Source: Terriglobales bacterium (GTDB lineage: Bacteria; Acidobacteriota; Terriglobia; Terriglobales; Acidobacteriaceae). Taken from it: a stretch of DNA of 64,000 nt. Of this stretch, positions 30,486-46,176 are shown one piece after another; the stretch's first letter is position 1; every line of letters starts with the position of its first letter. Location: contig JBBROM010000004.1 in assembly GCA_038229415.1 (NCBI GenBank), positions 210,343-274,342 of the forward strand. Reading direction: 5' to 3'. The position numbers and the translations under genes are program-made. The notes under the pieces are model-generated. The model did not search any database. It saw only the letters and a program-made list of their open reading frames with translations, and was not told where the DNA came from.

Positions 30486-32831
30486 ATGCGACTCTTCAAT
30501 CGTAACGTTTCGGCAGTTCGCTCTGCCGCATTGACTATTCTCTGCGGCGCGATGCTCGCCTCTGTGGCGTTTGCAGCGAATGCCGTCCCCACGGTCAACT
30601 GGCCGACCTCGCCTTCGCAAGCCAAGGCTGGGGCCGCAGCTGGCATCACCCTTACCGTCAGCGGAACTGGCTTCGTTAGCGGCGCTACTGTCCTGTGGAA
30701 CGGCAGCGCACGGACGACCACCTTTGTGAGCTCATCCAAGGTGACCGCTTCGATCCCCAACACGGATTTTGCGACGGCTAGTACTGCCACCGTTATCGTG
30801 CAGAATCCCACCCCGGGTGGCGGCAACTCCAACCCGGTATTCTTCCAGATCGGCACCCAAGCGCCGCCGAACATGGCACGTCTGGACATTGTGACCGGCA
30901 GCGGCCCTGAAGCCGCTTCGCCGACCGACTTTAACGGCGACGGCAAGCTCGATCTAGTGGTAGCGAATTCGCCCGACAATACCGTCACCTACCTGCAAGG
31001 CAACGGCGACGGCACATACGCGGCGGGCGTGAACTATCCGGTTCCGGGATTTCCTGTCGCAGTCTCCTGCGCAGACTTCAATAAAGACGGCAAGATGGAT
31101 ATGGTGGTTGTGGATCAGCGCCTGAATGCCGTCTCGATTCTGCTGGGCAACGGGGATGGCACCTTCCTTTCTCACGTGGAATATGGCGTCGGTTCGAGCC
31201 CTTACTCGGCGGTATTTGGAGACTTCAACGGCGATGGCATTCTGGATCTAGCGGTAGCCAACCGGGGAAGCAACAATGTTTCCATCCTGCTGGGCAACGG
31301 CGACGGCACCTTCCAAACCCAGGCCACCTACAGCACCAACCTCTCGCCGCAGGCGGTTACTGTCGGCGACTTCAACGGTGACGGCAAGCTCGATTTGGCC
31401 ACGGCCAACAATGGCGCGGACGACGTCTCCATCCTGCTGGGCAACGGCAACGGCACCTTCCAGGCGAAAGTAGACTATGCCACTGCGGCTGGGCCTACCT
31501 ATATCGTCACCGGCGACTACAACAATGACGGCAAGCTCGACCTCGTCGTTTCCACTGTGTCGAATTTTGCTTCGATCCTGCTGGGGAACGGCACCGGCAC
31601 CTTTGGCGCCTTCACCAAGGCAGCCAGCGGTGCCAACAGCCAGATCATCAACCTGGGTGACTTTAACGACGACGGCAAGCTGGACATGGTCACCGCCGAT
31701 TTCAATGACAACACGCTGTCCATCCTGACCGGCAACGCGAACGGCACGTTCGGAGGCCGCGTGGTAATCCCCGTAGGTCTGAGCCCTGACTGGATCGGCG
31801 TTGGCGACCTGAACAACGACGGCAAGCTTGATCTGGTTACTGCCAACTCCAGCATCAACACGATATCAGTGCTGACTGGCACGGCCGTGACCGTATCGCC
31901 CACCGTGCTTAGCTTTGGCACACTAACCGCAGGCACCAGCAGTGCGCCGAAGGTCATCACCATCAAGAACAACGGGACCACGACGGCCACTCTGGGTACG
32001 GTGAGCATTACCGGTGCCAACGCTGGCCAGTGGACTGCCACCTCCAGCTGTCCCGGGACTCTGGCTGCTGGCGCATCGTGCAGCATTAACGCAACGTTCT
32101 CACCCACATTGTCTGGCAACTTCGTTGCCGCGATCAACATCGGCCTCGGTACGGGCGGCCAGATCATCGGTGCATTTGTGAAGGGGACGGGCAACATTCC
32201 GATTATCCTGACGCCGCGCACCTTTACTTTCGCCAATACTCTGGTGGGCGCGACATCTGCTGCGGGCGTGTTCAACTTCACCAACAACAGTGGCGTGCCG
32301 ATTACGTTCTCCAGCATCGTGTTGAGCGGCATCAATCAGGCGGACTTTGCCCAGACCACGGATTGCCCGGTCGGTTCCGGTTCGCTGGGTGCCTTCACTA
32401 CCTGCCATGTCAACGTAACCTTTACGCCTTCCGCCACCGGCAATCGCACGGTGACGCTGATCTTTACCGGCAGCTTCACTCTGGTGGTTCAGGGTTCCTT
32501 GCTGAACGGCGTAGGCACAGCGCTCAGCTTCTCGGCCTCTTCGCTGAACTTTGGCACCGTGGCCGTTGGCAGCACAACCCCCTTACCGCTGGTTATCACC
32601 AACACCAGCTCCAGCGCAGTTACGTTTAACAACGTCTCAAAGTCGGGCACCAATGCCTCTGAGTACGGCCAGAGCAACAACTGTTCGCCAAGCATTCCAG
32701 CGAATGGAAGCTGCACCATCACGGTAACCTTCAAGCCCCTCGCCGCCGGTACCCGGACAGCGACGCTGAAAGTTAGCGACTCTGACCCGACCTCGCCGCA
32801 GAGCTTTACCATGACGGGTGTTGCGCACTAG
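30486..32831 (+). CDS. Secreted IPT/TIG + FG-GAP repeat + triple choice-of-anchor-D-like domain protein
   Basis: RBS aggag and a signal peptide. An IPT-like N-domain is followed by ~7 GDFNGDGKLD...VSILLGNGDGTF repeats. Three C-terminal Ig-like modules are of the type LSFGT...G.......NNG......S..G.NA..........C.......C.....F.P. Confidence 0.9.
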   Translation: MRLFNRNVSAVRSAALTILCGAMLASVAFAANAVPTVNWPTSPSQAKAGAAAGITLTVSGTGFVSGATVLWNGSARTTTFVSSSKVTASIPNTDFATASTATVIVQNPTPGGGNSNPVFFQIGTQAPPNMARLDIVTGSGPEAASPTDFNGDGKLDLVVANSPDNTVTYLQGNGDGTYAAGVNYPVPGFPVAVSCADFNKDGKMDMVVVDQRLNAVSILLGNGDGTFLSHVEYGVGSSPYSAVFGDFNGDGILDLAVANRGSNNVSILLGNGDGTFQTQATYSTNLSPQAVTVGDFNGDGKLDLATANNGADDVSILLGNGNGTFQAKVDYATAAGPTYIVTGDYNNDGKLDLVVSTVSNFASILLGNGTGTFGAFTKAASGANSQIINLGDFNDDGKLDMVTADFNDNTLSILTGNANGTFGGRVVIPVGLSPDWIGVGDLNNDGKLDLVTANSSINTISVLTGTAVTVSPTVLSFGTLTAGTSSAPKVITIKNNGTTTATLGTVSITGANAGQWTATSSCPGTLAAGASCSINATFSPTLSGNFVAAINIGLGTGGQIIGAFVKGTGNIPIILTPRTFTFANTLVGATSAAGVFNFTNNSGVPITFSSIVLSGINQADFAQTTDCPVGSGSLGAFTTCHVNVTFTPSATGNRTVTLIFTGSFTLVVQGSLLNGVGTALSFSASSLNFGTVAVGSTTPLPLVITNTSSSAVTFNNVSKSGTNASEYGQSNNCSPSIPANGSCTITVTFKPLAAGTRTATLKVSDSDPTSPQSFTMTGVAH

Positions 32832-34492: not shown

Positions 34493-36220
34493 TTACTGTA
34501 GCGCATCCTGCGTAACCTTGATCGCGCAGTAGTTGTTGGACCCGCACTGGGCAGCGGTGCTGGTGGAACGCGTTCCGAAGTAGACGCCGTTGGTGCCCGG
34601 GGCGCCGCCCTTCAGGTAGTCCAGCACAAAGGCGCTGGTGCCGCCCAGCATTCCGGTTGCGGAAGCCGTCGGAGTTGCGCTGGTCGAGGTGATGGGTGTG
34701 TTGATGGACCACGAGGTCAGCAGGTTGCTGCCCGTGGTGTTGGTGCCTGTGCCCGTACCCACATAGAGACGGTCATTCGTTCCATCGGACAAGGTGACGA
34801 TGGGTGAACAGTGCCCGGCAGGCTGAGCGGAAGTGTTGACGTTCGCGTTGCCCATTAATGTCGCTGTGGTGTTCAACACGCCGCTGCCGTTGAAGTTGCC
34901 CGCGTACAGCGCTGGAACCCCCGATGTGCTGCCCGAAAGACCGCAAGCGTACAAGGAGCCGCCAGCGGGGCCGGTGGACAGGTAGTTGTTATCGAAGTTT
35001 GCGCCGAGAACATAGCCAGCAGCCGGAACGCTGCCGATCGCCAAATCCACGTGCGAGCTAAGATCGAGCGGCATCTGCGAGATGATCGGGTGAGCATTGG
35101 CCACATCCGCTGCGGACGCGATGTAAACCCAACCGTTGAACGGATCCACAGCGACCGAATCCACGATCGAGGGATTGGTGTAGCCCTTGTTTGCACCCAC
35201 CTGGATTGAGGAGGAAAGTGCAAAACCAGTGCTGCTGCTAAACGTATACGAGAAGACCTTGGCCCCATCAGAAATGTAGATTTTGCCGTGTTGGGCGTCA
35301 TATACCGGCGAAGTCAGCTGCGAATTGGTGGTCACAATCGTGCAGAAGTCTACCGTCGGCGTTCCGTTAAAAACGCCGCTGACGTGATACAGGCGACCAT
35401 TGTTGGCACCCATGAATGCTCCATCGCTGGTGTAATCAATGTAAGGGGAAGAACCGAAGTTGTCCGCCTTGAGCAGCCCCGTGCAGCCTGGGACCCTGGC
35501 ATTCGTATAGTCCAGCGAAACCAGTGCGCCCGCCGAAGGGGCAACCGAGCCCGTGGTGGCATTGGTGCCTTGGCCAGTGGTCAAGGTGAGTACCTCGAAG
35601 AGTGCGCGATGGCGGCTCACTGACGACACCACAAACGCCGCCTTCTTTCCATCCAGCGACAATTCCGGAGAAAGGAAGATGCCACCGTCATCCACGGCAT
35701 AGGAGAACGCGAAATTCGGAGCCGTGCCGGTGCAGGAGGAGCCGTTCGCTCCGGCATACAGATTGTTGAGACCAACAAGATTGGCCTGCACGCCAGCTGC
35801 CGGTGAAACCGTCCCCGGAGTAGAGATTGCAAATAAGATAAAGTCACTGGTGCAGGCACCAGGGAAGCTCGGCGTCGTGTTCGCGGTGTACTTGGCCGGG
35901 AACTCGCCTTCGGGCAAACCGCGGCTGGTTGCTTTTGGTCCTAGTGAGATGGACCATTCCACTGGCGTCGCAGGGGCTGGAGCATTGGGGCGGACTGCGC
36001 CTGACTTCAAATCGCGCAACGCCAAGGCTTGCTGCAAGCGCGGGTCCTTATTCGCTGCGACCACTGCGGCATGGCCGGAAATTGCGGGGAGTACACGATT
36101 CGTGCTCCAGCTTTGCACTGAACTGGTGGAGCGGGAGGCGGATTGTGCCGATGCACACACCGCGCTCAACAACAGCCCACAGCCAGCAAAAGCCACTAAA
36201 ACTTTTCGGGGGTTCAGCAT
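34493..36220 (-). CDS. Secreted hypothetical protein (Thr/Ser/Gly-rich, probably beta-rich)
   Basis: Strong RBS ggagga 8 nt upstream and a signal peptide (VLVAFAGCGLLLSAVCASAQ). I recognise no family. Confidence 0.75.
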   Translation of the reverse strand: MLNPRKVLVAFAGCGLLLSAVCASAQSASRSTSSVQSWSTNRVLPAISGHAAVVAANKDPRLQQALALRDLKSGAVRPNAPAPATPVEWSISLGPKATSRGLPEGEFPAKYTANTTPSFPGACTSDFILFAISTPGTVSPAAGVQANLVGLNNLYAGANGSSCTGTAPNFAFSYAVDDGGIFLSPELSLDGKKAAFVVSSVSRHRALFEVLTLTTGQGTNATTGSVAPSAGALVSLDYTNARVPGCTGLLKADNFGSSPYIDYTSDGAFMGANNGRLYHVSGVFNGTPTVDFCTIVTTNSQLTSPVYDAQHGKIYISDGAKVFSYTFSSSTGFALSSSIQVGANKGYTNPSIVDSVAVDPFNGWVYIASAADVANAHPIISQMPLDLSSHVDLAIGSVPAAGYVLGANFDNNYLSTGPAGGSLYACGLSGSTSGVPALYAGNFNGSGVLNTTATLMGNANVNTSAQPAGHCSPIVTLSDGTNDRLYVGTGTGTNTTGSNLLTSWSINTPITSTSATPTASATGMLGGTSAFVLDYLKGGAPGTNGVYFGTRSTSTAAQCGSNNYCAIKVTQDALQ

Positions 36221-36300: not shown

Positions 36301-37437
36301 CTACGCGCTCACGCCGGATTGTGCCGCCGGCATAGATGGGATACGAATTTGCACCAACGGCACGGAAAGGCCTCCGCTGACGCCTAAAGACTGCAAGCGA
36401 AGCATATTGGCCGAAGGAATCGCGGTTCGCTGGTAGGACTTTTCACAGTCTGCCACCGAGGGGCCCCGCATATTGCCTTCCATGTACGCCAAACCTGGGC
36501 ACCGCGTGCAGGTGCCTACATGAGAACAGCCGGAACAAACCGTCAAGTCGCGCGCGCGAATTGAGCGCACTTCGTTCAGTTGGTCCGAGTGCTGCCAGAT
36601 ATCGAGAAAGCGCTGTTGGCGAACGTTGCCACTGGGTAGCGGAAACTGCACACACGGATAAACGTCACCGTACGGCGAAACATAGCAAGCCGAATGTCCG
36701 GCGCTGCACGGGATGCCATCCAAGACGTCATCATCAGGCGCGGGCGGCGGGGCGCAAAACTCCACCGAATTCCCTACTACTTCATCGTCGCGAAAAATCT
36801 TGTGCAGTTGGTCGCCAGACGCGCGCAGCGCCAGCAGGGAGCGGTCCCCATCCATCTTGGGCGTAATCGTTGGGTCGAGCTGATAGCCGACGCCGAGCTC
36901 TTCTGCAAGTTTTTTCGCGCCCAGATAGTCGTCGGCGTTGTGCGTCATCAGCACATTGGCGATGGTGACTTTGAGGCCCTGTTCCTTCAGGAATTTGATC
37001 GCCCGTACGGTGCGTTCCCACGAACCCTTCACCAGGGTGATGGCATCATGTACTTCGGCGCGGTGGGAGTAGACGCTGATGTTGATCTGTTCCACACCCA
37101 GTTCGCGCAACTGCTGCGCCTGTTTTTCCTTGATCAGCACCGCATTCGTCTTGACCTTGACGTTGAACAGCAGCTTGCGGGCATAGGCGACCAGCTCAAG
37201 GAAATCCTTGCGCAGAAAAACTTCGCCGCCGCTAAAGGTGAGGAAGAATGTACCTGCCGCCGCCAGCTCGTCCAGCAAATGCTTGATCTCGTCGGTGGTC
37301 ATCTCGCCGTGGTCATCATGGTCGAGATAGCAGTGGACGCAACGCTCATTGCAGCGGTAGGTCACATCCACATGGACATTGATCGGGACACCGTATCCGA
37401 TGGCCTTCTGCGACATTTCTCCGATCAGTTGACCCAT
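36301..37437 (-). CDS. Radical SAM / SPASM-domain peptide maturase
   Basis: The CxxxCxxC cluster is in VTYRCNERCVHCY. The C-terminal SPASM-type Cys-rich region is CSAGHSACYVSPYGDVYPC...CSGCSHVGTCTRCPG. Confidence 0.9.
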   Translation of the reverse strand: MGQLIGEMSQKAIGYGVPINVHVDVTYRCNERCVHCYLDHDDHGEMTTDEIKHLLDELAAAGTFFLTFSGGEVFLRKDFLELVAYARKLLFNVKVKTNAVLIKEKQAQQLRELGVEQINISVYSHRAEVHDAITLVKGSWERTVRAIKFLKEQGLKVTIANVLMTHNADDYLGAKKLAEELGVGYQLDPTITPKMDGDRSLLALRASGDQLHKIFRDDEVVGNSVEFCAPPPAPDDDVLDGIPCSAGHSACYVSPYGDVYPCVQFPLPSGNVRQQRFLDIWQHSDQLNEVRSIRARDLTVCSGCSHVGTCTRCPGLAYMEGNMRGPSVADCEKSYQRTAIPSANMLRLQSLGVSGGLSVPLVQIRIPSMPAAQSGVSA

Positions 37438-37443
37438 GTTTTT

Positions 37444-37755
37444 CTACTCCACGTAGCCGGCCGCGTTGGTCGCGATCGGCTGGTCCGACACCAGCAAAAT
37501 TCCATGCTCCGAAAGGTCGCTGACAAATGCCTCAGCATCGCGCAACGCCTCTTCCGGCGAAACCTCAAACTCCTGGCAAACCCGGCCCGTCACAATTTCA
37601 TGCAGCGGCGTCTTGCCATCTGCTGCCAGCCAAACCGTGACTGCAACAGGATTCAGCGTGAAAAACTTGGAGTCTACCGCCGACATAATCATCATCTCGT
37701 CGCCCAGTTGACGGGCGGCGATGCGGGCACTGCGCGCGATGTAAGTCTGCGTCAT
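37444..37755 (-). CDS. PqqD-family peptide chaperone (RRE domain)
   Basis: 103 aa. LGDEMMIMSAVDSKFFTLNPVAVTVWLAADGKTPLHEIV...FEVSPEEALRDAEAFVSDLSEHGIL matches the PqqD fold pattern. Its stop codon lies 6 nt before the rSAM start. Confidence 0.85.
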   Translation of the reverse strand: MTQTYIARSARIAARQLGDEMMIMSAVDSKFFTLNPVAVTVWLAADGKTPLHEIVTGRVCQEFEVSPEEALRDAEAFVSDLSEHGILLVSDQPIATNAAGYVE

Positions 37756-37855
37756 CCATTCATCCTAACGACCGTTCCAAACTGGGAACAGCCCACAACC
37801 GGGCTATTCGTATCCCCAACCGAGCCACCATTGCCCACGAAAGTGGGACAAGCGA

Positions 37856-38668
37856 CTAGCCAATCAAATCCCACACCCGTTCGTCGGGATAAAAGTTCAG
37901 CCGACGCACCGGCACCCGCTCTAAAAACGCACACGCCCCGGCGAAGACCCGGTTTACCAGTTCCTCGTCCCGTGCGAAGAACAAAATATTTCTCATCAGC
38001 ATGCGCAGTGCTTCAGCCCGAGGAATCTCCTCAAAGTGGTTCGAGTCACCCTTGCCGAGAAAATACAGCGCCTCGATTGGCCCGGATGTATTCACACCCG
38101 GCGTACCCATCTCTCCGGCGAATGGCGTCCCGTAGGCCACGTATCCGTTTCCGTCGCCCATCCTGCGGATATACGACGCTTCATCCGTAAGCACCGAAGC
38201 GTCGGGAGGGGCTAGCCGCGAAATCGTGGTCTTGCCTGCAGTTGAGACACCCGAAAATAGAAATGCCTTGCCGTTTCGTACCACGCTCGCCGCATGCAGA
38301 AGAAAGCCGCCCTCTTGTGCCAGTGCCAGCGAATGCACGATGCGCAGCACAGAATCAATGGCATAGGGCGTCAGGGTCTGCGTGATGCGGCCTTGGCGAG
38401 TACGCGAGTCCCATTCCGCGCGAAAGTCGCCACGCTCCATGCGCCAGAGGCTTCCCTCCGCAGTTACGCTAACGTCGGCATCCGGATCGGCTAGCGCGGC
38501 GCCGTCAATTACTGTGATCTCAAACTCATAACCGGGCTCCCGGCCACTGCCAGCAAAGGTGCCGAAACGGGACTCCAGCAGTGGAATCAGCCGCGCATCC
38601 TCTGAGCGGAGCAGAACGGCAATGCCCCCGATCTCGACGACGACTTCGGCTGCCATGGTGGAATTCAC
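37856..38668 (-). CDS. HPr-kinase-related (HprK-like) serine kinase
   Basis: LHAASVVRNGKAFLFSGVSTAGKTT is the HprK C-domain P-loop context. The GTG start overlaps the upstream stop codon (GTGA). An alternative ATG lies four codons downstream. Confidence 0.8.
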   Translation of the reverse strand: MNSTMAAEVVVEIGGIAVLLRSEDARLIPLLESRFGTFAGSGREPGYEFEITVIDGAALADPDADVSVTAEGSLWRMERGDFRAEWDSRTRQGRITQTLTPYAIDSVLRIVHSLALAQEGGFLLHAASVVRNGKAFLFSGVSTAGKTTISRLAPPDASVLTDEASYIRRMGDGNGYVAYGTPFAGEMGTPGVNTSGPIEALYFLGKGDSNHFEEIPRAEALRMLMRNILFFARDEELVNRVFAGACAFLERVPVRRLNFYPDERVWDLIG

Positions 38669-39237
38669 GAATTCTCCGTGCGGTGCAAGCCGCTCACAAC
38701 GACGTGCGACGATGCGTTGTGCTTACTGTATGACTGCTTAGCCTGATACCGCTTATCCCAAAAACATTGAAGGCGGAGGGCAATCGTTCTTACCATGAGC
38801 GATCGGCGGAGGCACTCGGCTAGCCAGGAACGTTTGCGGATCGCGTAAGAAAGTGCCTGCACAGCACCGCGCCGCTCCCTGTGTGTCACCAGCCCCAGCA
38901 GACCTTCCGGGGGCAATGCCGGATCATCCCATTCCAGAAAGTCTCCCCGGCAGACCACCGTACGCATTCCGTCTTCGCCCAACCGCACGATTCTGTGGAC
39001 AACCAACCGCCCACGCTGACGGCTTAGCCACACCTGACCCACCAGCGCTTCGCGCGAGGGAATCGCCTTCACGCGCAGCACGTCGCTTGGCCAAATCGCT
39101 GGCAGCATGCTGGTGCCGTGTGCTCGGAAGCGCAACTCACCGAAGCTGCGCAGCGCTTCTTCGGCCAGGGCGCACCCCGCCAAATCGTGCTCTTCCGGGA
39201 AAGCTATGACTACGAATTCTTTCGGTTGAAGTTGCAC
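38665..39237 (-). CDS. S26-family signal-peptidase-like protease, SipW/archaeal (Ser/His) type
   Basis: The nucleophile block is GTSMLPAIWPSDVL. LVVHRIV stands where bacterial P-type enzymes have the catalytic Lys box (His instead of Lys). The GTG start overlaps the last 28 nt of the precursor ORF. Confidence 0.7.
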   Translation of the reverse strand: MQLQPKEFVVIAFPEEHDLAGCALAEEALRSFGELRFRAHGTSMLPAIWPSDVLRVKAIPSREALVGQVWLSRQRGRLVVHRIVRLGEDGMRTVVCRGDFLEWDDPALPPEGLLGLVTHRERRGAVQALSYAIRKRSWLAECLRRSLMVRTIALRLQCFWDKRYQAKQSYSKHNASSHVVVSGLHRTENS

Positions 39238-39380
39238 TGCGAACCGCCAGCTGGCGTCTTACCGCAGGCCAACGCCATGGTTTCAAACACTTCTTCGTAG
39301 CGATATTCAGGCTTGGCGTATTGCTTTTTTTCGGTCGGAACTGCGACCGTCGTTCCTGAGGTGGCGTTGAGCTTTTCCAT
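39210..39380 (-). CDS. Candidate RiPP precursor peptide, 56 aa (not in the supplied ORF track)
   Basis: Hand translation gives MEKLNATSGTTVAVPTEKKQYAKPEYRYEEVFETMALACGKTPAGGSQCNFNRKNS followed by a stop. aaggag lies 11 nt upstream of the ATG and an in-frame TAA lies 6 codons upstream. It sits at the head of the maturase operon. Confidence 0.7.
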   Translation of the reverse strand: MEKLNATSGTTVAVPTEKKQYAKPEYRYEEVFETMALACGKTPAGGSQCNFNRKNS

Positions 39381-39448
39381 GATCCGAGGATCTCCTTAGT
39401 CTTGGGTTTGCCTCATTGCGGGCAGAGACGAGACCCGTTTTGAAACTG

Positions 39449-39481
39449 ATTATATCTATTTCGGGAAAAATTCCTTATCAA
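39449..39481 (-). promoter_or_regulatory. Candidate promoter hexamers in the AT-rich gap upstream of the precursor ORF
   Basis: On the minus strand there is a TTGATA (39481-39476) and a perfect TATAAT (39454-39449), but they are 21 nt apart. A TAGATA lies at the canonical 17-nt spacing. The assignment is tentative. Confidence 0.3.
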
Positions 39482-39584
39482 ATTTTACAATTCCTGTGAA
39501 TCGTATGGACTTTAGGCTCAGAGAGGGTGGAATCAGTAAATACAGGCTAGAAGAAAGGGGCGGGATTCCAGGATAGGGATAACT

Positions 39585-40409
39585 CTAGTAATAAGCCAGC
39601 GATCCCCGGCGTCTAGCGGAACGCAGCGCCAGATCGAAGGCAAACCATCCTAAGGGAAGCAGAAGACAGCCGGAGGCAAGCTGTGCCAATTCAGGAAATA
39701 GCTGACCAGGACTGCTCCCCGAGAGCAGGGCTGCCCTCATACACGTCAGCGCTTGGGTCAACGGAAACGCTCGTGCCCACCACTGCAAGGGGCCGGGCAA
39801 CGCACTCACCGGGAACAGCGTTCCCGTCATCATCCACGTAGCGGTGCCGATGGCCCACAGAATGGCGCTGCCGCGCTGGATTGCCAGCTGCACGGCCGCT
39901 GCGATCAGGCCCAAGCCCACCACGATCACCAGCGAGAGAAGCAATACAATCAACACGCTCCAAGGATTCGCCGCCCCGAGGGACGCTCCGAAGAAGATCG
40001 CTCCGCCAAGCAGATAGAGAAACATCCCAAACGCGCTGCTCAAGAAAGAGGCGAACGCACTTAGCAGCACCAGCACCGTAGGCGAAGTAGAGGTGGTCAT
40101 CAGGACTTCCAGCATTCCCGTAGTTTGGGCTTCTTGAATCAGATTTAGAAACGCGCTGATGCCGTTTAGCAGGAAGCTGTAAAAGCCGGTGCCAACCAGT
40201 AAAAAGAGGAAGTAGTCATGCCCTTCGGGCCGATAACCTGCACCAATCGAACGCGCAAGAAAAAAGAAAACGGCCAGCTCCGCTAGATGCGTGAGCGCCG
40301 AAAGGGCGAATCCAGCGGGATAACGCAGAGCGGTGAGTATGGCTCGGCGTAACACCGCCACCATCTTGTCGGCTAGTAGCGCGACCGAGCGACTCAGGCG
40401 AGGAATCAT
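39585..40409 (-). CDS. ABC-2-type transporter permease
   Basis: 274-aa protein with six hydrophobic segments. Its ATG overlaps the stop codon of the upstream ATPase gene (ATGA). Confidence 0.8.
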   Translation of the reverse strand: MIPRLSRSVALLADKMVAVLRRAILTALRYPAGFALSALTHLAELAVFFFLARSIGAGYRPEGHDYFLFLLVGTGFYSFLLNGISAFLNLIQEAQTTGMLEVLMTTSTSPTVLVLLSAFASFLSSAFGMFLYLLGGAIFFGASLGAANPWSVLIVLLLSLVIVVGLGLIAAAVQLAIQRGSAILWAIGTATWMMTGTLFPVSALPGPLQWWARAFPLTQALTCMRAALLSGSSPGQLFPELAQLASGCLLLPLGWFAFDLALRSARRRGSLAYY

Positions 40410-41293
40410 GCCGGGCCTCCCGTTGGTGCTGAATTAGAGGAAGAGGCAGCAGGCGGCTCAGGCGGCCCGTCCACTCCATCGCCAATTGCTAGATCGAGTT
40501 CATCGAGCAATGGGTTCCCTATCCGGCCACAGGCCCGAAAATAGGTCTCGCGAAGCGAGGACGAGTTGCGGCCCGAGGGACGGTCGTCATGATGAACCAT
40601 GCGGCCTTGTTGCAGGATTGCGACCTCGTCGGCTACCGCGGCAGCTTCTGTAAAGCTGTGGGTCGCCAGCAGGATGGTTGTTCCCTGCTGCGCCAGCGCG
40701 CGCACCAAGTGCCAGAACTGCTCGGCCGAGCCGGGGTCGAGACTGCGTGTAGGTTCATCGAGCAGCAAAATCGGAGGGCGCTTGAGCAAGGCGCGAGCGA
40801 GGCCCAGACGCTGCGTCATGCCGCTGGAAAACTTCATGACCAGCTTGCCGGAAGCATCGTTCAGGCCAGCGAGCGCGAGCGATTCCGCAACGCGGCGCGT
40901 GCGGGTCGCGCGGGGCACTTCTTCCAGCGCGGCGAAGAACTCGAGATTCTCTTCCGCCGTAAGCCGGGGGAAGAACGACCGCTCGTGAACCAGCACGAAA
41001 CCGACCCGTTGGCGCACGGCCTGATCTTCGTGAACCGTGTCATGGCCCTGCACCAGAATGCTACCCTCGTCAGGAAACAGAATGGAGGACACCATTTTCA
41101 GGGTTGTGGTTTTGCCGCTGCCGTTCGGGCCAAGTAGGACGAGGATACGTCCCGGAGCAAGGCGGAAGCTCAGGTCGCGAACTGCCCATTCTGGCTCCGT
41201 GAGAGCTAGCTCACGGTGCGGCCAAGGCAGCCAACTGCCGCCGCGCCGGTAGCGCTTGCTCACCGCGTTCAGGATGATCGCTTCAAATGCCAT
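40406..41293 (-). CDS. ABC transporter ATP-binding protein
   Basis: Walker A GPNGSGKTT, signature FSSGMTQRL and Walker B ILLLDEPT. I prefer the Met at 41293 (MAFEAIILNAV) to the tracked start at 41311. The C-terminal tail is Pro/Ala/Ser-rich. Confidence 0.9.
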   Translation of the reverse strand: MAFEAIILNAVSKRYRRGGSWLPWPHRELALTEPEWAVRDLSFRLAPGRILVLLGPNGSGKTTTLKMVSSILFPDEGSILVQGHDTVHEDQAVRQRVGFVLVHERSFFPRLTAEENLEFFAALEEVPRATRTRRVAESLALAGLNDASGKLVMKFSSGMTQRLGLARALLKRPPILLLDEPTRSLDPGSAEQFWHLVRALAQQGTTILLATHSFTEAAAVADEVAILQQGRMVHHDDRPSGRNSSSLRETYFRACGRIGNPLLDELDLAIGDGVDGPPEPPAASSSNSAPTGGPA

Positions 41294-41404
41294 GGGGAGG
41301 AAAGGCCGCACTGCTTCGCGCCAGCGCGAGCACGTGCGAACGACCTATTATAGGTCTGGCTCGCAGGCGCAGCGGCTAGAAGGGTACGGTTCTAGTAAGG
41401 AAAT

Positions 41405-42583
41405 ATGAAATCTGATTCCAAAACAGAATCGCGGTCCAAGCTAACTCCCGAGTTTGCTTTATTGCTGCGGGCGGTGTCGCTAGACGCGTGTGAGGGCGAA
41501 TCAAAGCTCGCTGCGAACAACGACTGGCCTCGCCTGGCTGATCTGGCCGATGCTCATGGCCTTTCCGTGCGGCTGGGTGGATTGCTGCAACGGTATCAGG
41601 ATCAGGTTCCGGCGGAACTGCTTGAGGCATTGGCCCGCGAAACCGCGGCCAATGCTCGGCGCAATCTCGAATTCACGCAGCGTTTGCTGAGAATTGTGAA
41701 TGCACTGGCGGAAGTGGGCGTCCCTGCGCTGGCCTATAAAGGCCCGGTGCTGGCAGAGATGCTCTATGGCAGTCAACCGCTGCGCGAGTTCCGCGATGTG
41801 GATGTACTCATCCGGCCTGAAGACTGGCCAAGCGCCAAGCAGCGCATGATCGCGCTTGGGCTCACGCCGAACCAGAGCTTTACCGTTGGGCAAGAAGCGG
41901 CTTACGTCCGCTCGAACAACGAGATGGCGTTTGACGGTTGGGGTGCCCGCAACTGGCTGGAGATTGAATGGGCCATTGTGCCGCGCTACTTTAGTGTGGA
42001 GATGCGGGTGGAGGATTTACTGGCGCGATCGGTAGAATTTTCGCTGGCGGGCGCGATGGTGCGAACGCTCTGCGCGGAAGACACGCTGCTGGCGCTGGCG
42101 GTGCATGGCAGCAAGCATGGCTGGTCACGACTGTGCTGGGTGGCCGACATCGCCGACCTGTTGCGAGTTCGCGAGTTGGATTGGGATGTGGTGTTAAGAG
42201 AAGCGGAACGATTAGGAGTGATGCGTATGGTGCGCGTGGCGTTGCGCTTGGCGGCGCAGGTGAATCCGGGCATGCGTGCAGATTTGCCTTTGAACACTAT
42301 TGCGGAACAGCAAGCTGTGGATGGATTGGCGGGGGAATTTTGGCGCGCGTTGCAATATGAGCCGCAGCGCTATACGCAGGAGTCGTGGCGATACTTTCTG
42401 ATGATGCCGCGCTTGCGCGAACGCGGCGGTGATCGTTTGCGATTTGTGTGGCGTCTGCTGGCGACGCCGGAAACTGGGGAGTGGAAGTTGGTGAGTCTGC
42501 CGGATTCGCTTTACGGGCTTTACTATCCGTTGCGGGGATTACGGCTGGCGATGAAGCTGTTGCGGAGGCTGTTGCGGTTCTAG
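41405..42583 (+). CDS. Nucleotidyltransferase-family protein (NTP_transf_5 type)
   Basis: The blocks ALAYKGPVLAEMLYGSQPLREFRDVDVLIRPEDW and LALAVHGSKHGW are characteristic of the uncharacterised nucleotidyltransferases found beside PqqD/HprK-like pairs. It is divergent from the ABC genes. Confidence 0.75.
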   Translation: MKSDSKTESRSKLTPEFALLLRAVSLDACEGESKLAANNDWPRLADLADAHGLSVRLGGLLQRYQDQVPAELLEALARETAANARRNLEFTQRLLRIVNALAEVGVPALAYKGPVLAEMLYGSQPLREFRDVDVLIRPEDWPSAKQRMIALGLTPNQSFTVGQEAAYVRSNNEMAFDGWGARNWLEIEWAIVPRYFSVEMRVEDLLARSVEFSLAGAMVRTLCAEDTLLALAVHGSKHGWSRLCWVADIADLLRVRELDWDVVLREAERLGVMRMVRVALRLAAQVNPGMRADLPLNTIAEQQAVDGLAGEFWRALQYEPQRYTQESWRYFLMMPRLRERGGDRLRFVWRLLATPETGEWKLVSLPDSLYGLYYPLRGLRLAMKLLRRLLRF

Positions 42584-42589
42584 CACTGG

Positions 42590-42935
42590 GCGGTTTGGTT
42601 GGCGCAGATCCCGTGCCGCCCCTACGGGGCTCGACTTTTGCGCCGTGCCTACCCAGGGCTTACGCCCTGGGCTAAATGCAAGTTCGCCCCTGACGGGGCT
42701 GCGGCAGGGGTGGAGCGAACGTCGCAAGCATAGACCAAAGTACGCGGCTAATGAGCTGCGGGTTATTTTCGAGCGGCGGTCGCAGCACTGCCTGGAGGCG
42801 TGGCACGGTAGGGGTCCTTCGACTACGCGGAGAGACTCGCGTTGCGAATCTCTCCGCTCCGCTCAGGATGACAGGGGGGATGAGTCTGAAACTGACCACT
42901 GCCCAGTGATCGCGCTTCTCGCGCCGGGTCTGGGG
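42590..42935. repeat. Cluster of REP-like hairpin elements, including copy B (42807-42879) of the element at 2787-2867
   Basis: Small GC hairpins are present: gcccc-tac-ggggc, cccagggc-ttac-gccctggg and gcccc-tgac-ggggc. Then comes ggtaggggtccttcgactacgcggagagactcgcgttgcgaatctctccgctccgctcaggatgaca plus a G-run. Confidence 0.8.
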
Positions 42936-42975
42936 TTTGCGCTATCCTCAAGAGTTCTCTGGGAGGGCCTTTTTC

Positions 42976-45900
42976 ATGAAGCAATTTCGCGGACTTGTCG
43001 AATCCGTCACTGCGTTTTCTGCCGTTATTCTTGCCACGCTTTCTCTGGTCGCATTCTTCCCTGCAAGCAGTGCGGCGCAGGATGTGACCTCGCTCTACAG
43101 CGACATGCACTGGCGCATGATTGGACCGTTCCGCGCCGGGCGGACGGTTGCGGGTGCGGGCATTCCCACCCAGCCCTGCGTATTTTATGTGGGCCCAAAT
43201 AACGGCGGCGTGTGGAAGACGGACGACTGCGGCAACACTTGGCAGTCGGTGTTTGAGGGCAACACGCAATCGGTGGGGGCGCTGGCGATTGCGCCGTCGA
43301 ATCCTGACATTATCTATGTCGGCAGCGGTGAGGGATTGCGCCGCCCTGATCTTTCCATCGGCGACGGCATGTACAAGACGACCGATGCAGGCAAAACGTG
43401 GACGCATCTCGGCCTGCGCGACGGCCAGCAGATTGGCGCGATCATCGTGGATCCGAAGAATCCTGACCGGCTATTCGTTGCGGTGCTGGGGCATCCTTAT
43501 GGCCCTAATGTGGAGCGTGGAATTTTCCGCTCGCTCGATGGAGGGCAGACGTTCACCAAAGTGCTTTACAAGAACGACATTCTTGGCGGCATTGATCTCG
43601 CCTTCGATCCGCGCGACAGCAGGAAGATTTATGCGTCGCTTTGGGCTTCGATGCGCACGCCGTGGTGGTGGGGAAATAATCTTGAAGGTCCGGGCAGTGC
43701 GCTCTATAAGTCTGACGATGGCGGCGAAACTTGGCGCGAGTTGAACAAGGGCTTTCCGGAAAAGCATAACCGGATCAGTATCACGATTGCGCCGTCGAAC
43801 CCCGACCGCATGTACGCGACTGTGGATGTAAGCGACGCCGGCGGCGTCTATCGCTCGGACGATGCCGGCGAGAGCTGGACGCTGGTTAACTCCGAGGAAC
43901 GCGTGGTTGGGCGCAACTCGGACTTTGCGTGGATTCGCGTTCATCCGAAAGATGCTGACACGATTTACATCAGCAATACTTCGACGTATAAATCCACGGA
44001 CGGTGGCAAGACGGTGACCGCGATCAAGGGTGCTCCGGGCGGCGACGACTATCATGCGACGTGGATCAATCCGCTGAATCCCGACATCATGCTGCTGACG
44101 GTGGATCAGGGCGCAGTCGTTACTGTGAATGGTGGCAAAACGTGGAGCAGTTGGTACAACCAGCCCACGGCGCAGATTTATCATGTGGCGACGGACAATC
44201 AGTTTCCGTATTGGGTCTATGGTTCGCAGCAGGATAGCGGCTCGGTTGGCACGACGAGTCGCAGTGACTACGGGGGCATCACGTTCCGCGACTGGCATCC
44301 CATTGGCATTGAAGAGTACGGCTACGTGGCACCCGATCCGCTGCATCCTGATATTTTGTATGGCGGCAAGTTTACCAAGTTTGATCGCCGCACGGGACAG
44401 GTGCAGGATGTGAGTCCGTGGGTGATTCGTACGGGCAAGTATCGGCTGAATCGTTCGCAACCGGTGATGTTCAATCCGGTGGATCCGCACATTCTCTACT
44501 TCGGTTCGCAGGTGCTGTTTGAAACGCGCGATGGCGGGCACAGTTGGAAAGAAATTTCTCCGGATCTGAGTCGCCCGGAGCCGGTGACGCCCGCGACGGT
44601 CGGCCCTGAGTTTGTAAACAACGATCCGCTCAAAGGCATTCATCATGGAGTGATTTATTCCATCGCACCTTCACCGAAGGATGTGAACCTGATTTGGGCT
44701 GGCACCGATGATGGCCTGGTACACGTGACCCGCGACGGCGGCAAAAAGTGGGAGAACGTTACGCCGCCCGAGATGACGGCGTGGAGCAAAGTGACGCAGA
44801 TGGATGCGGGACATTTCGATGCAAAAACTGCATACATTTCGGTGAGCCGCTTCCGGCTGGATGATCTGCACGCCTATATTTATCGCACGCACGACGGCGG
44901 CAAGACCTGGCAGAAGATCACCAATGGAATTTCGGATGACGCAGCGGTGGATGCGGTGCGCGAAGATCCGGAGAAGCCTGGGCTGTTGTTTGCGGGCACC
45001 GAGCGTGCCATGTGGGCCAGCTTCGACGATGGCGACCATTGGCATTCCCTGCAAATGAACCTGCCGCTCACCGCAATGCGCGATTTCGTGATCCACGGCG
45101 ACGACATTGTGGTGGGCACGCATGGGCGATCCTTCTGGATTCTCGACGACATCACACCACTGCGCCAGATCAAGGAAAGCGACTTCAGCAAGACTCGACT
45201 GTTTGCGCCGCAACTAGCGACGCGGATTCGTCGGAGTACGTATCCTGACACGCCGCTACCACCCGAGACGCCGATGGGGCAGAATCCGCCGGATGGCGCG
45301 GTGATTGACTACTTTCTGAAAGATGGGGCGAAGCAGGTGACGATTCAGATCGTAGATTCGGAAGGCAATGTGGCGAGGACGTATTCCAGCGATGACAAGC
45401 CGGAGCCGGTGAACGAGAAGGAACTCAACGTCCCGCTGTATTGGGTGCGGTACGAGAAGACGCTGCCCAACACGGTTGGCATGCATCGCTGGCATTGGGA
45501 TTTGAGCTATGCGCGTCCGAAGGGGCTGGACACGGAGTATCCCATCAGCGCGATTCCGCACGATACGCCCAACGAACCGCTGGGGCCGAGTGCGCTGCCT
45601 GGTCAATATCTAGTGCGGCTTATTGTAGACCACGCTGTGATGCAACAGCCACTCAAGGTGCGAATGGATCCGCGAGTGCTGGCTACAGCGTCTGATCTGA
45701 AGGCCATGTTTGATGCACAGCAAGAAGCGGCCACGCAGATCGCCAAGAACAACGACACTTTGGCCGAGGTTCGTAATTGGAAGAAGCAACTGCGTGAACT
45801 GGCTGGTGTGCCTGAACCGCTTCGCGACAAGGCACATGACCTTGCCGACAAGCTGGAGAAATTAGAGAAAGGCAACGGAACCCGTGAGCCGGGCATTCTT

Positions 45901-46176
45901 GCTTCGAAGGGCATGGCGACAATGCACGGCTGGCTGAACCAGGTGTATGGCTCGCTGGGCAGCGCTGATACCGCGCCCACTGCGCAAGCGCTGGCAATGC
46001 TGCAGGAGCTGGAGAAAGTTTCTGCCGAGCAGATCGCGCAACTTGATCCACTACGCGGCACACTTAAGGAAGTGAACGAACAGTTGCGTAGTGCGGGAAA
46101 GCCAGAGATTGCGCTGATGCGCGGCGGCGAATCGGGTGCAACACAAATTCACGGAGCGGAAAAGGCAGAGGAGTAG
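42976..46176 (+). CDS. Secreted BNR/Asp-box repeat protein (sortilin/VPS10- or GH74-like double beta-propeller)
   Basis: RBS gggaggg 8 nt upstream and a signal peptide. Asp-boxes recur: TTDAGKTW, SLDGGQTF, SDDGGETW, SDDAGESW, STDGGKTV, VNGGKTW, TRDGGHSW, TRDGGKKW, THDGGKTW. Confidence 0.85.
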   Translation: MKQFRGLVESVTAFSAVILATLSLVAFFPASSAAQDVTSLYSDMHWRMIGPFRAGRTVAGAGIPTQPCVFYVGPNNGGVWKTDDCGNTWQSVFEGNTQSVGALAIAPSNPDIIYVGSGEGLRRPDLSIGDGMYKTTDAGKTWTHLGLRDGQQIGAIIVDPKNPDRLFVAVLGHPYGPNVERGIFRSLDGGQTFTKVLYKNDILGGIDLAFDPRDSRKIYASLWASMRTPWWWGNNLEGPGSALYKSDDGGETWRELNKGFPEKHNRISITIAPSNPDRMYATVDVSDAGGVYRSDDAGESWTLVNSEERVVGRNSDFAWIRVHPKDADTIYISNTSTYKSTDGGKTVTAIKGAPGGDDYHATWINPLNPDIMLLTVDQGAVVTVNGGKTWSSWYNQPTAQIYHVATDNQFPYWVYGSQQDSGSVGTTSRSDYGGITFRDWHPIGIEEYGYVAPDPLHPDILYGGKFTKFDRRTGQVQDVSPWVIRTGKYRLNRSQPVMFNPVDPHILYFGSQVLFETRDGGHSWKEISPDLSRPEPVTPATVGPEFVNNDPLKGIHHGVIYSIAPSPKDVNLIWAGTDDGLVHVTRDGGKKWENVTPPEMTAWSKVTQMDAGHFDAKTAYISVSRFRLDDLHAYIYRTHDGGKTWQKITNGISDDAAVDAVREDPEKPGLLFAGTERAMWASFDDGDHWHSLQMNLPLTAMRDFVIHGDDIVVGTHGRSFWILDDITPLRQIKESDFSKTRLFAPQLATRIRRSTYPDTPLPPETPMGQNPPDGAVIDYFLKDGAKQVTIQIVDSEGNVARTYSSDDKPEPVNEKELNVPLYWVRYEKTLPNTVGMHRWHWDLSYARPKGLDTEYPISAIPHDTPNEPLGPSALPGQYLVRLIVDHAVMQQPLKVRMDPRVLATASDLKAMFDAQQEAATQIAKNNDTLAEVRNWKKQLRELAGVPEPLRDKAHDLADKLEKLEKGNGTREPGILASKGMATMHGWLNQVYGSLGSADTAPTAQALAMLQELEKVSAEQIAQLDPLRGTLKEVNEQLRSAGKPEIALMRGGESGATQIHGAEKAEE

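Follow-up and report, generated by a model that had tools for sequence, protein, structure and literature searches.

A conserved 56-codon gene of soil Acidobacteria encodes a candidate RiPP precursor beside a peptidase, kinase, PqqD and radical SAM operon

Terriglobia rank among the commonest bacteria in soil. Their peptide natural products have hardly been explored. A stretch of 64,000 nucleotides from a Terriglobales genome (the window) contains a 56-codon open reading frame (ORF) upstream of several putative peptide-modifying enzymes, and it raises two questions: is this ORF a gene, and if so, is its product the substrate of those enzymes? A sequence-only reading had taken it for the precursor of a peptide that is made on the ribosome and modified after translation (a RiPP). 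The features at issue are as follows.

39210..39380, minus strand: candidate precursor peptide gene, ATG, 56 codons plus stop (family conservation, codon-level selection)
39381..39584, minus strand: AT-rich intergenic gap, putative promoter region (GC content, TATAAT, AAGGAG)
39585..40409, minus strand: ABC-2 type permease, accessory putative exporter (PF01061)

The ORF translates as MEKLNATSGTTVAVPTEKKQYAKPEYRYEEVFETMALACGKTPAGGSQCNFNRKNS. Its start signals are as the sequence-only reading described them: an ATG opening 56 codons, a Shine-Dalgarno sequence (AAGGAG at 39397..39392) 11 nt before it, and an in-frame stop 6 codons upstream. The AT-rich upstream gap that it claimed is also present; it spans 204 nt between the peptide gene and the stop of the ABC permease gene (39585), and its GC content drops to 0.35–0.39 versus ~0.6 in the flanks. 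A perfect TATAAT lies within the gap at 39454..39449 on the minus strand. A sigma-70 consensus scan of 39381..39584 found no promoter, and an Rfam search of the gap found no RNA family.

As 129 ORFs with a length of 30 aa or more overlap the 33–44 kb region, and many ORFs of this size arise there by chance, length alone is no proof for the peptide ORF, and the proof has to come from conservation. A short ORF behind an AT-rich gap could be spurious, with any conserved signal arising from an RNA element or a promoter-proximal motif. We found 284 homologs in a word-indexed search and 695 representative clusters at 50% identity (E ≤ 1e-3), and homologs occur at 230 loci in 230 species genomes, nearly all of them Terriglobia. 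Entropy at codon positions 1, 2, and 3 is 0.47, 0.44, and 1.29, so that third-position variation is about three-fold that of the other two, and pN/pS is 0.16/0.75 (a ratio of ~0.2). Among 75 distinct sequences tested, none has a disrupted reading frame, and the stop codon varies between TAG, TGA, and TAA; gene callers also predict the same peptide gene, of 55–57 aa, in more distant Sulfotelmatobacter-type loci. Conservation is thus at the level of codons and not of nucleotides. This signature refutes the RNA-element or spurious reading, which the missing Rfam match also disfavors and to which we attach next to no credence. We conclude that the ORF is a real, strongly conserved, protein-coding gene of soil Acidobacteria under strong purifying selection. 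Searches of Pfam and NCBIfam returned no model for the peptide, in the case of NCBIfam even at E ≤ 10.

Alignment of the family divides the peptide into two parts.

39267..39380, minus strand: predicted leader, residues 1–38 (alignment, family statistics)
39303-39320, minus strand: leader recognition block Y21-x-K23-P24-x-Y/F26 (alignment)
39267-39275, minus strand: A36-L37-A38, a putative cleavage motif at the end of V31-F-E-T-M-A-L-A38 (alignment)
39213..39266, minus strand: predicted core, residues 39–56, CGKTPAGGSQCNFNRKNS (family statistics)

The layout is that of a bipartite precursor, with a conserved leader block, a defined putative cleavage site, and a core that varies between clades. 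The N terminus of the leader (residues 1–17) is variable. Across ~250 diverse members, two motifs are near-invariant: Y-x-K-P-x-F, and F-E-T-x-A-L-[A/S] followed directly by C-G-K. The YxKPxF motif is kept in >97% of members (Y at −18 in 267/270, P at −15 in 268/270), an A occupies position −3 in 245/247, and position −1 is A, S, or T in 239/247. The proposed boundary between residues 38 and 39 coincides with this invariant A-x-[A/S]↓C site. Cys39, Cys49, and the C-terminal Ser56, which the sequence-only reading had singled out, are all present in the translation and are essentially invariant across the family: GK follows the first Cys in 246/247 members, the second Cys stands nine residues from the first in 238/247 (96%), and 247/247 end in Ser. 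The core in the window contains no Asp, Glu, or Trp and ends in ...NRKNS, and no acidic residue is conserved at core positions 7–9 across the family. In more distant clades the core tail varies considerably; divergent cores retain the leader motifs, AL[AS]↓CGK, the second Cys, and the terminal Ser, and the remainder diverges. Two precursors with different cores occur in one locus. Conservation of the core is higher than one would normally see in a secreted RiPP of the antibiotic type. We also considered a lipoprotein or Sec signal in the leader and rejected it, as the leader has no hydrophobic segment.

Downstream of the peptide gene, family searches identified the four genes that the sequence-only reading had named there.

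38665..39237, minus strand: soluble S26B (Sec11/SipW-type) serine peptidase homolog, predicted leader peptidase (motifs, profile)
37856..38668, minus strand: HprK-like P-loop kinase of the ScmC family; its predicted target is the precursor's C-terminal Ser (family matches)
37444..37755, minus strand: PqqD-family RiPP recognition element (RRE) (PF05402 5e-14; ScmD and lasso_PqqD NCBIfam matches)
36301..37437, minus strand: radical SAM (rSAM)/SPASM maturase (PF04055 1.5e-27, PF13186 1.3e-11)

The GxSMxP, PGD, HR, RGD, and D motifs of the peptidase are invariant in an alignment of its homologs, and its profile matches human SEC11C (E = 1.7e-8) and SEC11A (E = 2.1e-8) with these motifs aligned; the single sequence matches TIGR02228 weakly (17.7, below the cut-off of 51.85). 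The peptidase sequences have no hydrophobic N-terminal segment, and the leader of the predicted substrate has no hydrophobic core. By sequence, the enzyme is a soluble offshoot of the S26B family, and the A-x-[A/S]↓C boundary in the precursor fits such a Sec11-type peptidase encoded next to it. At its longest, the peptidase ORF reaches into the end of the peptide gene; the true start is probably near 39183. Many peptidase ORFs begin with "MPLQxEEF"; we discarded this as a peptidase motif, because it is the conserved C terminus of the peptide read in another frame.

The kinase matches TIGR04249 ScmC (6e-10), HprK_rel_B (9e-5), and the PEPCK_ATP P-loop, and H125, GVSxxGKTT148, and D162-E163 are invariant among its homologs. 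Homologs ~50% identical to the kinase carry the precomputed annotation PF27840:ScmC. An AF2 model built with 38 homologs had a pLDDT of 59.8 (<50 in the P-loop region), and a profile search of the PDB matched the P-loop only, so that the kinase fold is confirmed by neither; single-sequence PDB searches with the kinase-like and peptidase-like proteins, and with the propeller protein described below, gave nothing significant. The best solved relatives of the PqqD protein are the lasso RREs TbiB1 and TfuB1. In the rSAM protein, CxxxCxxC and nine C-terminal Cys (a full SPASM complement) are conserved. It reaches the cut-off of none of the named NCBIfam rSAM families, and its closest solved structure by sequence is SkfB (3e-17).

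Of 80 peptide-anchored loci, 43 have the peptide gene directly upstream of genes for the S26B peptidase, the ScmC kinase, PqqD, and the rSAM/SPASM enzyme, with all five on one strand at near-constant spacing; the peptidase itself is present in 45/80. Seen from the other side, among kinase-anchored metagenome loci that extend far enough upstream, 52/59 (88%) have the peptide gene as the immediate upstream neighbor of the operon. The rSAM gene is downstream in 47/49. The remaining 7/59 were scanned again with looser motifs and read in all frames upstream of the peptidase, and they truly lack a peptide gene next to the operon. The sequence-only reading had raised the question of whether homologs always sit beside a maturase: this holds for the two sets just given, and it does not hold for 37/80 peptide loci (46%), which lack a maturase within 10 kb. 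The peptide gene stands by itself in about 21 loci, and one whole clade keeps it between an epoxide hydrolase gene and an HbpS-like gene. Maturation in trans would explain both peptide loci without a maturase and maturase loci without a peptide; when the lengths of contigs bearing ScmC homologs were set against those of orphan-peptide contigs, none agreed.

Loci of this kind, including the epoxide hydrolase clade, could also mean that the product is an unmodified small protein (e.g., a regulator or an envelope factor) whose proximity to a maturase is incidental. This is hard to reconcile with the reverse co-occurrence of 88% or with the placement of the peptide gene, which always directly precedes a maturase operon in the same orientation and in many cases shares sequence with the peptidase ORF. 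Moreover, the conserved motifs of the peptide match the known recognition preferences of RREs and peptidases of the types encoded next to it. We regard an unmodified protein as quite improbable. The RiPP-precursor interpretation, which homologs, codon-level conservation, invariant Cys and Ser residues, and operon linkage all support, is the one that we pursue, although the chemistry itself we infer.

Which known system does the cassette resemble? As in the paeninodin (pade), pseudomycoidin (psm), and Bradymonas bsf clusters, it combines a stand-alone PqqD-type RRE, an HprK-family kinase, a nucleotidyltransferase, and an ABC exporter. Leaders of phosphorylated lasso clusters carry Y-x-x-P-x-(L/F) ~13–18 residues before the cleavage site, and YxKPxF is a near copy of the lasso Y-x-x-P-x-L at almost the same distance. 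The precursor ends in Ser, as do those of paeninodin and pseudomycoidin, in which this residue is the phosphorylation site and is modified by PadeK and PsmK, respectively (PMC6993621; PMC10368454). BsfK has been assayed together with the RRE BsfB1, and the YxxPxL motif was tested in the same paper (PMC10368454). In pseudomycoidin, a lasso peptide, the phospho-Ser receives a hexose from PsmN, an uncharacterized nucleotidyltransferase (PMC6993621). On these grounds (leader motif, lasso-like RRE, HprK-like kinase, NTP_transf_5 enzyme, ABC exporter, and C-terminal Ser), the peptide might be taken for a phosphorylated, paeninodin-like lasso precursor. In lasso clusters, however, a cyclase and a B2 protease stand where the cassette has an rSAM/SPASM protein and a Sec11-type serine peptidase: neither an asparagine-synthetase-like cyclase nor a B2 transglutaminase-type protease was found in the window cluster or among the recurrent neighbor families. 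The core, with its two invariant Cys, also offers no conserved acidic acceptor, as the window core has neither Asp nor Glu and none is conserved at positions 7–9. Without a cyclase or an acceptor, a lasso precursor is very improbable, and we reject it.

A second comparison is with the SynChlorMet cassette (SCM, Haft; TIGR04248-04251), with which the acidobacterial cassette shares a ScmC-family kinase, a PqqD protein whose best NCBIfam match is ScmD, and an rSAM protein that matches ScmE and ScmF. All of these scores fall far short of the equivalog cut-offs (ScmC 38.9 versus 125, ScmD 34.3 versus 100, ScmE and ScmF 91.9 and 73.9 versus 400), and the acidobacterial cassette has a recognizable precursor, an S26B peptidase, and a single rSAM gene in place of two. 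Judged by these matches, it is a relative of the SynChlorMet cassette and not a member. To our knowledge, the description of the SCM family identifies no precursor. The ScmC-like kinase family has >7,500 members at E ≤ 1e-20, and the peptide provides a concrete candidate substrate for this very large ScmC-like kinase/PqqD/rSAM cassette.

A Cys-containing core, an RRE-dependent rSAM enzyme, and a full SPASM domain are also found in sactipeptide and ranthipeptide systems (SkfA/SkfB, subtilosin/AlbA, freyrasin/PapB). In those systems the RRE is fused to the rSAM protein, and here it is a separate protein; the acidobacterial core has only two Cys, and the known systems include neither a kinase nor an S26B peptidase. 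The rSAM protein scores far below the thioether-family cut-offs (AlbA 86 bits versus 850, SkfB 68.5 versus 300, StsB 111.8 versus 625). Its best NCBIfam scores are with the decarboxylase-type families AhbD, NirJ2, and MftC and not with sactisynthases, and thioether chemistry is therefore a guess.

The match to MftC (6.8e-42, among the best full-length NCBIfam matches) and a further match to PqqE bear on another reading, in which the peptide is the precursor of a small-molecule cofactor, as PqqA and MftA are for PQQ and mycofactocin. Those pathways (PqqA/PqqD/PqqE; MftA/MftB/MftC) likewise place a short, highly conserved precursor beside a PqqD-family chaperone and an rSAM/SPASM enzyme. The very high conservation of the core and C terminus, the stand-alone PqqD, the dedicated peptidase, and orphan precursor copies in housekeeping contexts would all suit such a role. 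The rSAM scores are nevertheless far under the cut-offs (143.8 versus 265 for MftC, 97.2 versus 381 for PqqE), the C terminus has neither the Glu/Tyr pair of PQQ nor the Val-Tyr of mycofactocin, the other pqq and mft genes are absent, and the variation of the core tail in distant clades is unexpected for a fixed cofactor. We consider a cofactor precursor improbable.

Two further accessory genes lie beyond the permease.

40406..41311, minus strand: ABC transporter ATPase, DrrA type, accessory (PF00005, TIGR01188)
41405..42583, plus strand: NTP_transf_5 nucleotidyltransferase, divergently transcribed (PF14907 2e-56)

The nucleotidyltransferase is a frequent accessory (9/20 wide-view maturase loci); the ABC permease was found in only 5/80 peptide-anchored and 3/20 kinase-anchored wide-view loci.

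We think it probable that the ORF encodes a RiPP precursor and that the downstream operon matures its product, and from the genes and motifs alone we infer every enzymatic step as follows. The PqqD RRE would bind Y(−18)-x-K-P(−15)-x-F(−13) in the leader, and the rSAM/SPASM enzyme would modify the core of the leader-held peptide, most likely at the two invariant Cys (e.g., with thioether cross-links). The ScmC kinase would phosphorylate the invariant C-terminal Ser, by analogy with the HprK-family kinases of paeninodin and pseudomycoidin biosynthesis, and the NTP_transf_5 enzyme, where present, may add to the Ser phosphate. In three loci (L041, L065, and L077) the kinase is absent and the terminal Ser is kept, so the Ser may serve another purpose. 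The soluble Sec11-like peptidase would cut after the invariant A-x-[A/S] (A-L-A↓C), releasing an 18-residue CGK...S product. Export of this product would follow, through the ABC pump in loci that encode one, and the product would probably act together with a co-encoded secreted β-propeller. Such a pathway would unite lasso-type leader recognition and C-terminal tailoring with the chemistry of a radical SAM enzyme and leader removal by a cytoplasmic peptidase of Sec11 type, a union that would be unreported: full-text literature searches (for the peptide motifs, for SynChlorMet/ScmC/PF27840, and for HPr kinase with rSAM and PqqD) turned up no account of the system, either of the peptide family or of the S26B/ScmC/PqqD/rSAM enzyme combination. 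Its defined motifs (YxKPxF, AL[AS]↓CGK, and the terminal Ser) ease the design of annotation models and biochemical tests.

The propeller gene follows the rSAM gene.

34493..36220, minus strand: secreted β-propeller, here called sec575, an uncharacterized Terriglobia-specific family (AF2 model, co-occurrence)

No Pfam or NCBIfam model matches sec575, and its 83 homologs are all hypothetical proteins. It has a signal peptide and 8 conserved Cys, and its AF2 model is a confident propeller (pLDDT 86.5, pTM 0.88). Structural matches are to generic propellers, with a best target-normalized TM-score of 0.70 (BamB). Unexpectedly, sec575 is the most frequent neighbor of the peptide gene (55/80 loci). 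In 17 loci it lies directly upstream of the peptide gene, in 13 it lies directly downstream and a maturase is missing, and in 17 it comes next after the rSAM gene. The peptide–sec575 pair is also seen in unrelated settings (dnaX-recR, IMPDH) where no maturase is close by. The conserved core and the tight link to sec575 point to a physiological rather than an antibiotic role.

This association suggests that the mature peptide could be a dedicated ligand or small subunit of sec575 and not a diffusible natural product, which is compatible with a RiPP precursor and refines the function of the product. After its modification in the cytoplasm and the loss of its leader, the peptide would be exported and would join the propeller in the extracytoplasmic space, in parallel to the γ subunit of quinohemoprotein amine dehydrogenase (QHNDH). 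The QHNDH γ subunit associates with the periplasmic β-propeller subunit QhpB. In its maturation (QhpC/D/E/F), a small Cys-containing polypeptide that bears a leader of 28 residues receives thioether cross-links from the cytoplasmic rSAM/SPASM enzyme QhpD, loses its leader to the dedicated serine protease QhpE, and is exported by the ABC transporter QhpF (PMC7876137). The parallel is a functional analogy only, as no sequence relationship is established, the acidobacterial peptidase is S26B-type and not subtilisin-type, and the cluster has no heme subunit, no flavoprotein gene, and no Trp in the core. A QHNDH-type quinone cofactor is excluded by the absence of Trp.

In favor of the sec575-bound product are the constancy of sec575 as a neighbor, the pairing in settings without a maturase, the signal peptide, 8 conserved Cys, and confident propeller model of sec575, and a core far more conserved than is usual in antibiotic RiPPs. 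Against it, none of the ~21 orphan peptide loci has sec575 within 10 kb and ~40% of wide-view maturase loci also lack it, its propeller matches are generic (TM 0.3–0.4 to the methylamine dehydrogenase heavy chain), redox partner genes are missing, and the interaction of propeller and peptide is hypothetical. A ligand or subunit of sec575 is accordingly a possibility that we hold with some doubt. More speculative, and rather unlikely as a whole, is a two-component extracytoplasmic module of peptide and sec575 across Terriglobia, in which one maturase locus serves several pairs in trans and each peptide, cross-linked by the rSAM enzyme, phosphorylated at its C terminus, cut by the Sec11-like peptidase, and exported, becomes a small subunit permanently bound to the propeller or its specific ligand. 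If it exists, the module would add a new class of protein subunits derived from RiPPs, for which QHNDH is essentially the one precedent, and would hint at the kind of substrate used by the larger ScmC/PqqD/rSAM cassette superfamily.

The 56-residue ORF that the sequence-only reading had taken for a RiPP precursor lies where it was placed, at window positions 39210–39380 on the minus strand, and it encodes MEKLNATSGTTVAVPTEKKQYAKPEYRYEEVFETMALACGKTPAGGSQCNFNRKNS from an ATG start. A Shine-Dalgarno-like AAGGAG (39397–39392) stands 11 nt ahead of the ATG, and an in-frame stop is found six codons 5' of it. The gap between the peptide gene and the preceding ABC permease gene is 204 nt long, its GC content drops to 35–39%, and it contains a perfect TATAAT at 39454–39449. 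A sigma-70 consensus scan of the gap detected no promoter, and an Rfam search of it detected no RNA family. The 33–44 kb region is overlapped by 129 ORFs of 30 aa or longer, so a length of 56 aa is by itself unremarkable, and the case for a peptide gene rests wholly on comparative evidence.

Genes around the probable precursor peptide in the window
40406–41311, minus strand: ABC ATPase
39585–40409, minus strand: ABC-2 permease
39210–39380, minus strand: precursor peptide
38665–39237, minus strand: 190-aa protein, peptidase-like
37856–38668, minus strand: 270-aa protein, kinase-like
37444–37755, minus strand: PqqD
36301–37437, minus strand: rSAM/SPASM enzyme
34493–36220, minus strand: 575-aa secreted protein (sec575)
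41405–42583, transcribed divergently from the minus-strand string: NTP_transf_5

The peptide has 284 homologues in a word-indexed protein search, all of 54–66 aa, all hypothetical and none with a Pfam domain; the longer ones look like start-codon miscalls. When 1.84 billion cluster representatives were searched with a peptide HMM, 695 clusters matched at E ≤ 1e-3 and 282 at E ≤ 1e-10, and the matches listed nearly always reach the C-terminus of the matched protein. Neither Pfam nor NCBIfam has a model that matches the peptide. In the species-representative genomes scanned, a relative is encoded at 230 loci, and 80 of these (L001–L080), nearly all from Acidobacteriota/Terriglobia metagenome-assembled genomes, were retained for analysis. 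Two family members carry other labels (L064, Betaproteobacteria; P0113, Candidatus Dormibacteraeota), and because the distribution is otherwise exclusive to Acidobacteriota, these may be mis-binned contigs.

The sequence-only reading had named a signal conserved at the nucleotide level only as grounds for rejecting the peptide; this is not what the comparison shows. Over the final 36 codons of the family's DNA sequences (75 distinct ones), entropy averaged 0.47 at codon position 1, 0.44 at position 2, and 1.29 at position 3, pN/pS was 0.16/0.75, and the frame was intact in 75 of 75 sequences, with TAG, TGA, or TAA as the stop codon. What is selected is thus the encoded peptide and not a motif in RNA or DNA; the gene is real, widespread, and protein-coding.

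The N-terminal 15–25 residues of the peptide are freely variable, and the fixed remainder reads KKPYxKPxFRxExVFETMALACGKxxxxxxxC[R/N/H]FNRKNS.

Conserved features of the peptide, numbered from the Cys that starts CGK, in 247–270 diverse members
Position −18: Tyr, 267 of 270
Position −16: Lys, 248 of 270
Position −15: Pro, 268 of 270
Position −13: Phe, Tyr, or Val, 263 of 270
Position −3: Ala, 245 of 247
Position −1: Ala (168), Ser (57), or Thr (14), 239 of 247
Positions +2 and +3: Gly-Lys, 246 of 247
Spacing of the two Cys: nine residues, 238 of 247
Last residue: Ser, 247 of 247

Distant members keep these anchors while other core residues change, as in those ending ALSCGKTGTLGTCGTNQKVS and ALSCGKMVDGTQGACMRSSSAS. 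Locus L014 has two precursor genes (10001–10162 and 12280–12447) whose cores differ (CGKTPATPLLCKGHKKNS and CAKAGSQSHCQIIKKRS), with a propeller gene reversed between them. A constant putative recognition leader joined to a core that drifts among clades is, on these alignments, the pattern expected of a RiPP precursor.

The peptide gene had been read as adjoining a set of maturase genes, and this holds for part of the family. Peptidase, kinase, PqqD, and rSAM genes lie immediately downstream on the same strand in 43 of the 80 peptide-anchored loci, three of which are without the kinase; the other peptide loci have no adjacent maturase. Conversely, we assembled 80 kinase-anchored metagenome loci, of which 59 had at least 900 bp upstream and 49 had enough downstream sequence. 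The peptide gene was directly upstream of the peptidase in 52 of the 59, and rSAM was present in 47 of the 49. In the seven exceptions (L083, L100, L103, L133, L138, L156, and L157), an adjacent peptide gene is truly absent, which would fit precursors encoded at another site in the genome; L133 and L138 retain the ABC and NTP_transf_5 genes. Among 20 kinase-anchored loci viewed more widely, PqqD and rSAM each occurred in 20, the peptidase in 19, the peptide in 17, sec575 in 12, NTP_transf_5 in 9, and the ABC genes in 3–4. These counts define a core module of peptide, S26B peptidase, ScmC, PqqD, and rSAM, to which the propeller, nucleotidyltransferase, and ABC pump are accessories of falling frequency in that order. 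A variant order was seen in Candidatus Sulfotelmatobacter-type contigs (L161 and L167–L172): CysK, a 55–57-aa precursor with a more divergent core, S26B, ScmC, PqqD, rSAM, then a glycosyltransferase or M48 peptidase and a SET-domain protein, with the propeller absent.

As a single sequence, the 190-aa protein weakly matched an archaeal signal peptidase (E = 0.0024). GxSMxP, PGD, HR, RGD, and D are invariant in an alignment of 31 orthologues, and the profile built from these matched human SEC11C (E = 1.7e-8) and SEC11A (E = 2.1e-8) with the motifs aligned; we therefore assign the protein to S26B, as a Ser/His/Asp-type signal-peptidase homologue without a membrane anchor. In substrates of S26B-family enzymes, the residues at −3 and −1 before the cut are small, a preference that A-x-[A/S/T], invariant just ahead of the first Cys, fits exactly; this site also reproduces the leader/core boundary drawn from the sequence alone. 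Many peptidase ORFs (window 39183–39237, minus strand, and L001–L080) seem to open with a conserved MPLQxEEF, which is the peptide C-terminus (QCRFNRKNS) in another frame and not a real start motif. The annotated peptidase starts and their apparent overlap with the peptide gene are probably wrong, and the true start probably lies some 50 nt further downstream.

The 270-aa protein matches NCBIfam ScmC (6e-10), HprK-related kinases A and B, and the PEPCK P-loop. Homologues that share about 50% identity with it are annotated, by precomputed Pfam assignment, as PF27840 "ScmC". H125, GVSxxGKTT148, and D162-E163 are invariant. The family is very large (7,525 proteins at E ≤ 1e-20). Among solved structures, the PqqD protein is closest to TbiB1 and TfuB1, both lasso-peptide RREs. 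The rSAM enzyme has CxxxCxxC and, in its C-terminal part, nine conserved Cys, the complement of a full SPASM domain; it reaches the cut-off of no named rSAM family, and its closest solved structure is SkfB. A 498-codon ORF (36694–38190, plus strand) runs antisense to the rSAM, PqqD, and kinase genes. Together with comparable ORFs in related loci (clustering families F4, F8, F16, and F27), it looks like an artefact of GC-rich coding DNA that can mislead longest-ORF gene calling.

The most constant neighbour of the peptide is sec575, present in 55 of the 80 loci versus 43 for the maturase. In 17 loci it immediately follows rSAM; in 17 it immediately precedes the peptide gene; and in 13 it immediately follows the peptide gene and a maturase is missing within 10 kb. 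Such maturase-free pairs occur in unrelated genomic settings, one being dnaX-recR-peptide-propeller and another, in an abundant lineage, IMPDH, peptide, propeller, and Ser/Thr kinase. Sec575 carries a signal peptide, conserves eight Cys, matches nothing in Pfam or NCBIfam, and is predicted with high confidence to fold as a beta-propeller (pLDDT 86.5, pTM 0.88). Structure comparison matched it to propellers of a generic kind (BamB, 6-phosphogluconolactonases, and methylamine dehydrogenase heavy chain). Each of its 83 detectable homologues is a hypothetical protein, and the family was seen in Terriglobia-type sequences only; a further homologue lies at L163:8261–10045. The apparent link of the peptide to an uncharacterised secreted propeller was unexpected and is possibly of greater interest.

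The family also extends beyond the maturase-linked set. About 21 loci (including L002, L004, L008, L018, L023, L026, L035, L037, and L053, with the peptide around position 10000) form a distinct clade, AFETMALACGK...LCRFNRKNS, with no maturase or propeller within 10 kb. The gene stands alone between epoxide-hydrolase-like and HbpS-like genes, and the housekeeping neighbourhood around it is conserved (photolyase, XRE-cupin regulator, pseudouridine synthase, epoxide hydrolase, peptide, HbpS-like, LiaF-like). These orphan peptides keep every recognition feature, and together with the seven peptide-less maturase loci they suggest maturation in trans.

Linkage and the leader and core motifs support the earlier proposal that the peptide is the likely substrate of an RRE-dependent rSAM/SPASM maturase, and the system would appear to work like an RRE-dependent rSAM RiPP pathway. 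Phosphorylated lasso peptides resemble it in their tailoring set; it is not a lasso system, as it has no cyclase, B2 protease, or acidic acceptor residue. Haft's SynChlorMet cassette is related, and membership was rejected because all scores fall far under the cut-offs and there is one rSAM only. No family threshold was reached for a sactipeptide, ranthipeptide, mycofactocin, or PQQ system. In the literature searched we found no description of the peptide motifs or of this gene combination. The peptide is a new precursor family, and the enzyme combination is new within a known kind of system.

The analysis establishes that the gene is coding, its linkage, the architecture of its motifs, and the families of the enzymes; the steps that follow are inferred. 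PqqD would bind Y(−18)xKP(−15)xF(−13) of the leader, numbered one residue apart from lasso Y(−17)xxP(−14)xL(−12); the lasso YxxPxL motif and kinase-RRE pairing were studied in the bsf system (PMC10368454). The rSAM/SPASM enzyme would modify the core, probably via the two invariant Cys. Thioether chemistry is a guess, because in NCBIfam the enzyme scores best against AhbD, NirJ2, and MftC, not against sactisynthases. The ScmC kinase would phosphorylate the terminal Ser, as PadeK and PsmK do in lasso systems (PMC6993621); a weak point is that the three kinase-less loci retain this Ser. NTP_transf_5 may then extend the phosphate, as PsmN does in a lasso system (PMC6993621). The soluble Sec11-like enzyme would cut at ALA/C to give an 18-mer, which would be exported and probably act together with the propeller. 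For this last idea the closest functional analogy is QHNDH gamma-subunit maturation (PMC7876137), an analogy only, with homology not established.

The cluster is flanked by two large secreted repeat proteins (30486–32831 and 42937–46176, both plus strand), one a 781-aa FG-GAP/VCBS protein with Ig-like domains and the other a 1079-aa Sortilin-Vps10/BNR protein; neither is conserved beside the peptide in other loci. A short way 3' of the NTP_transf_5 gene is a near-threshold match to the Rfam sRNA family Acido-Lenti-1 (42652–42700, plus strand; 35.3 bits against a gathering score of 37, E = 4e-5).
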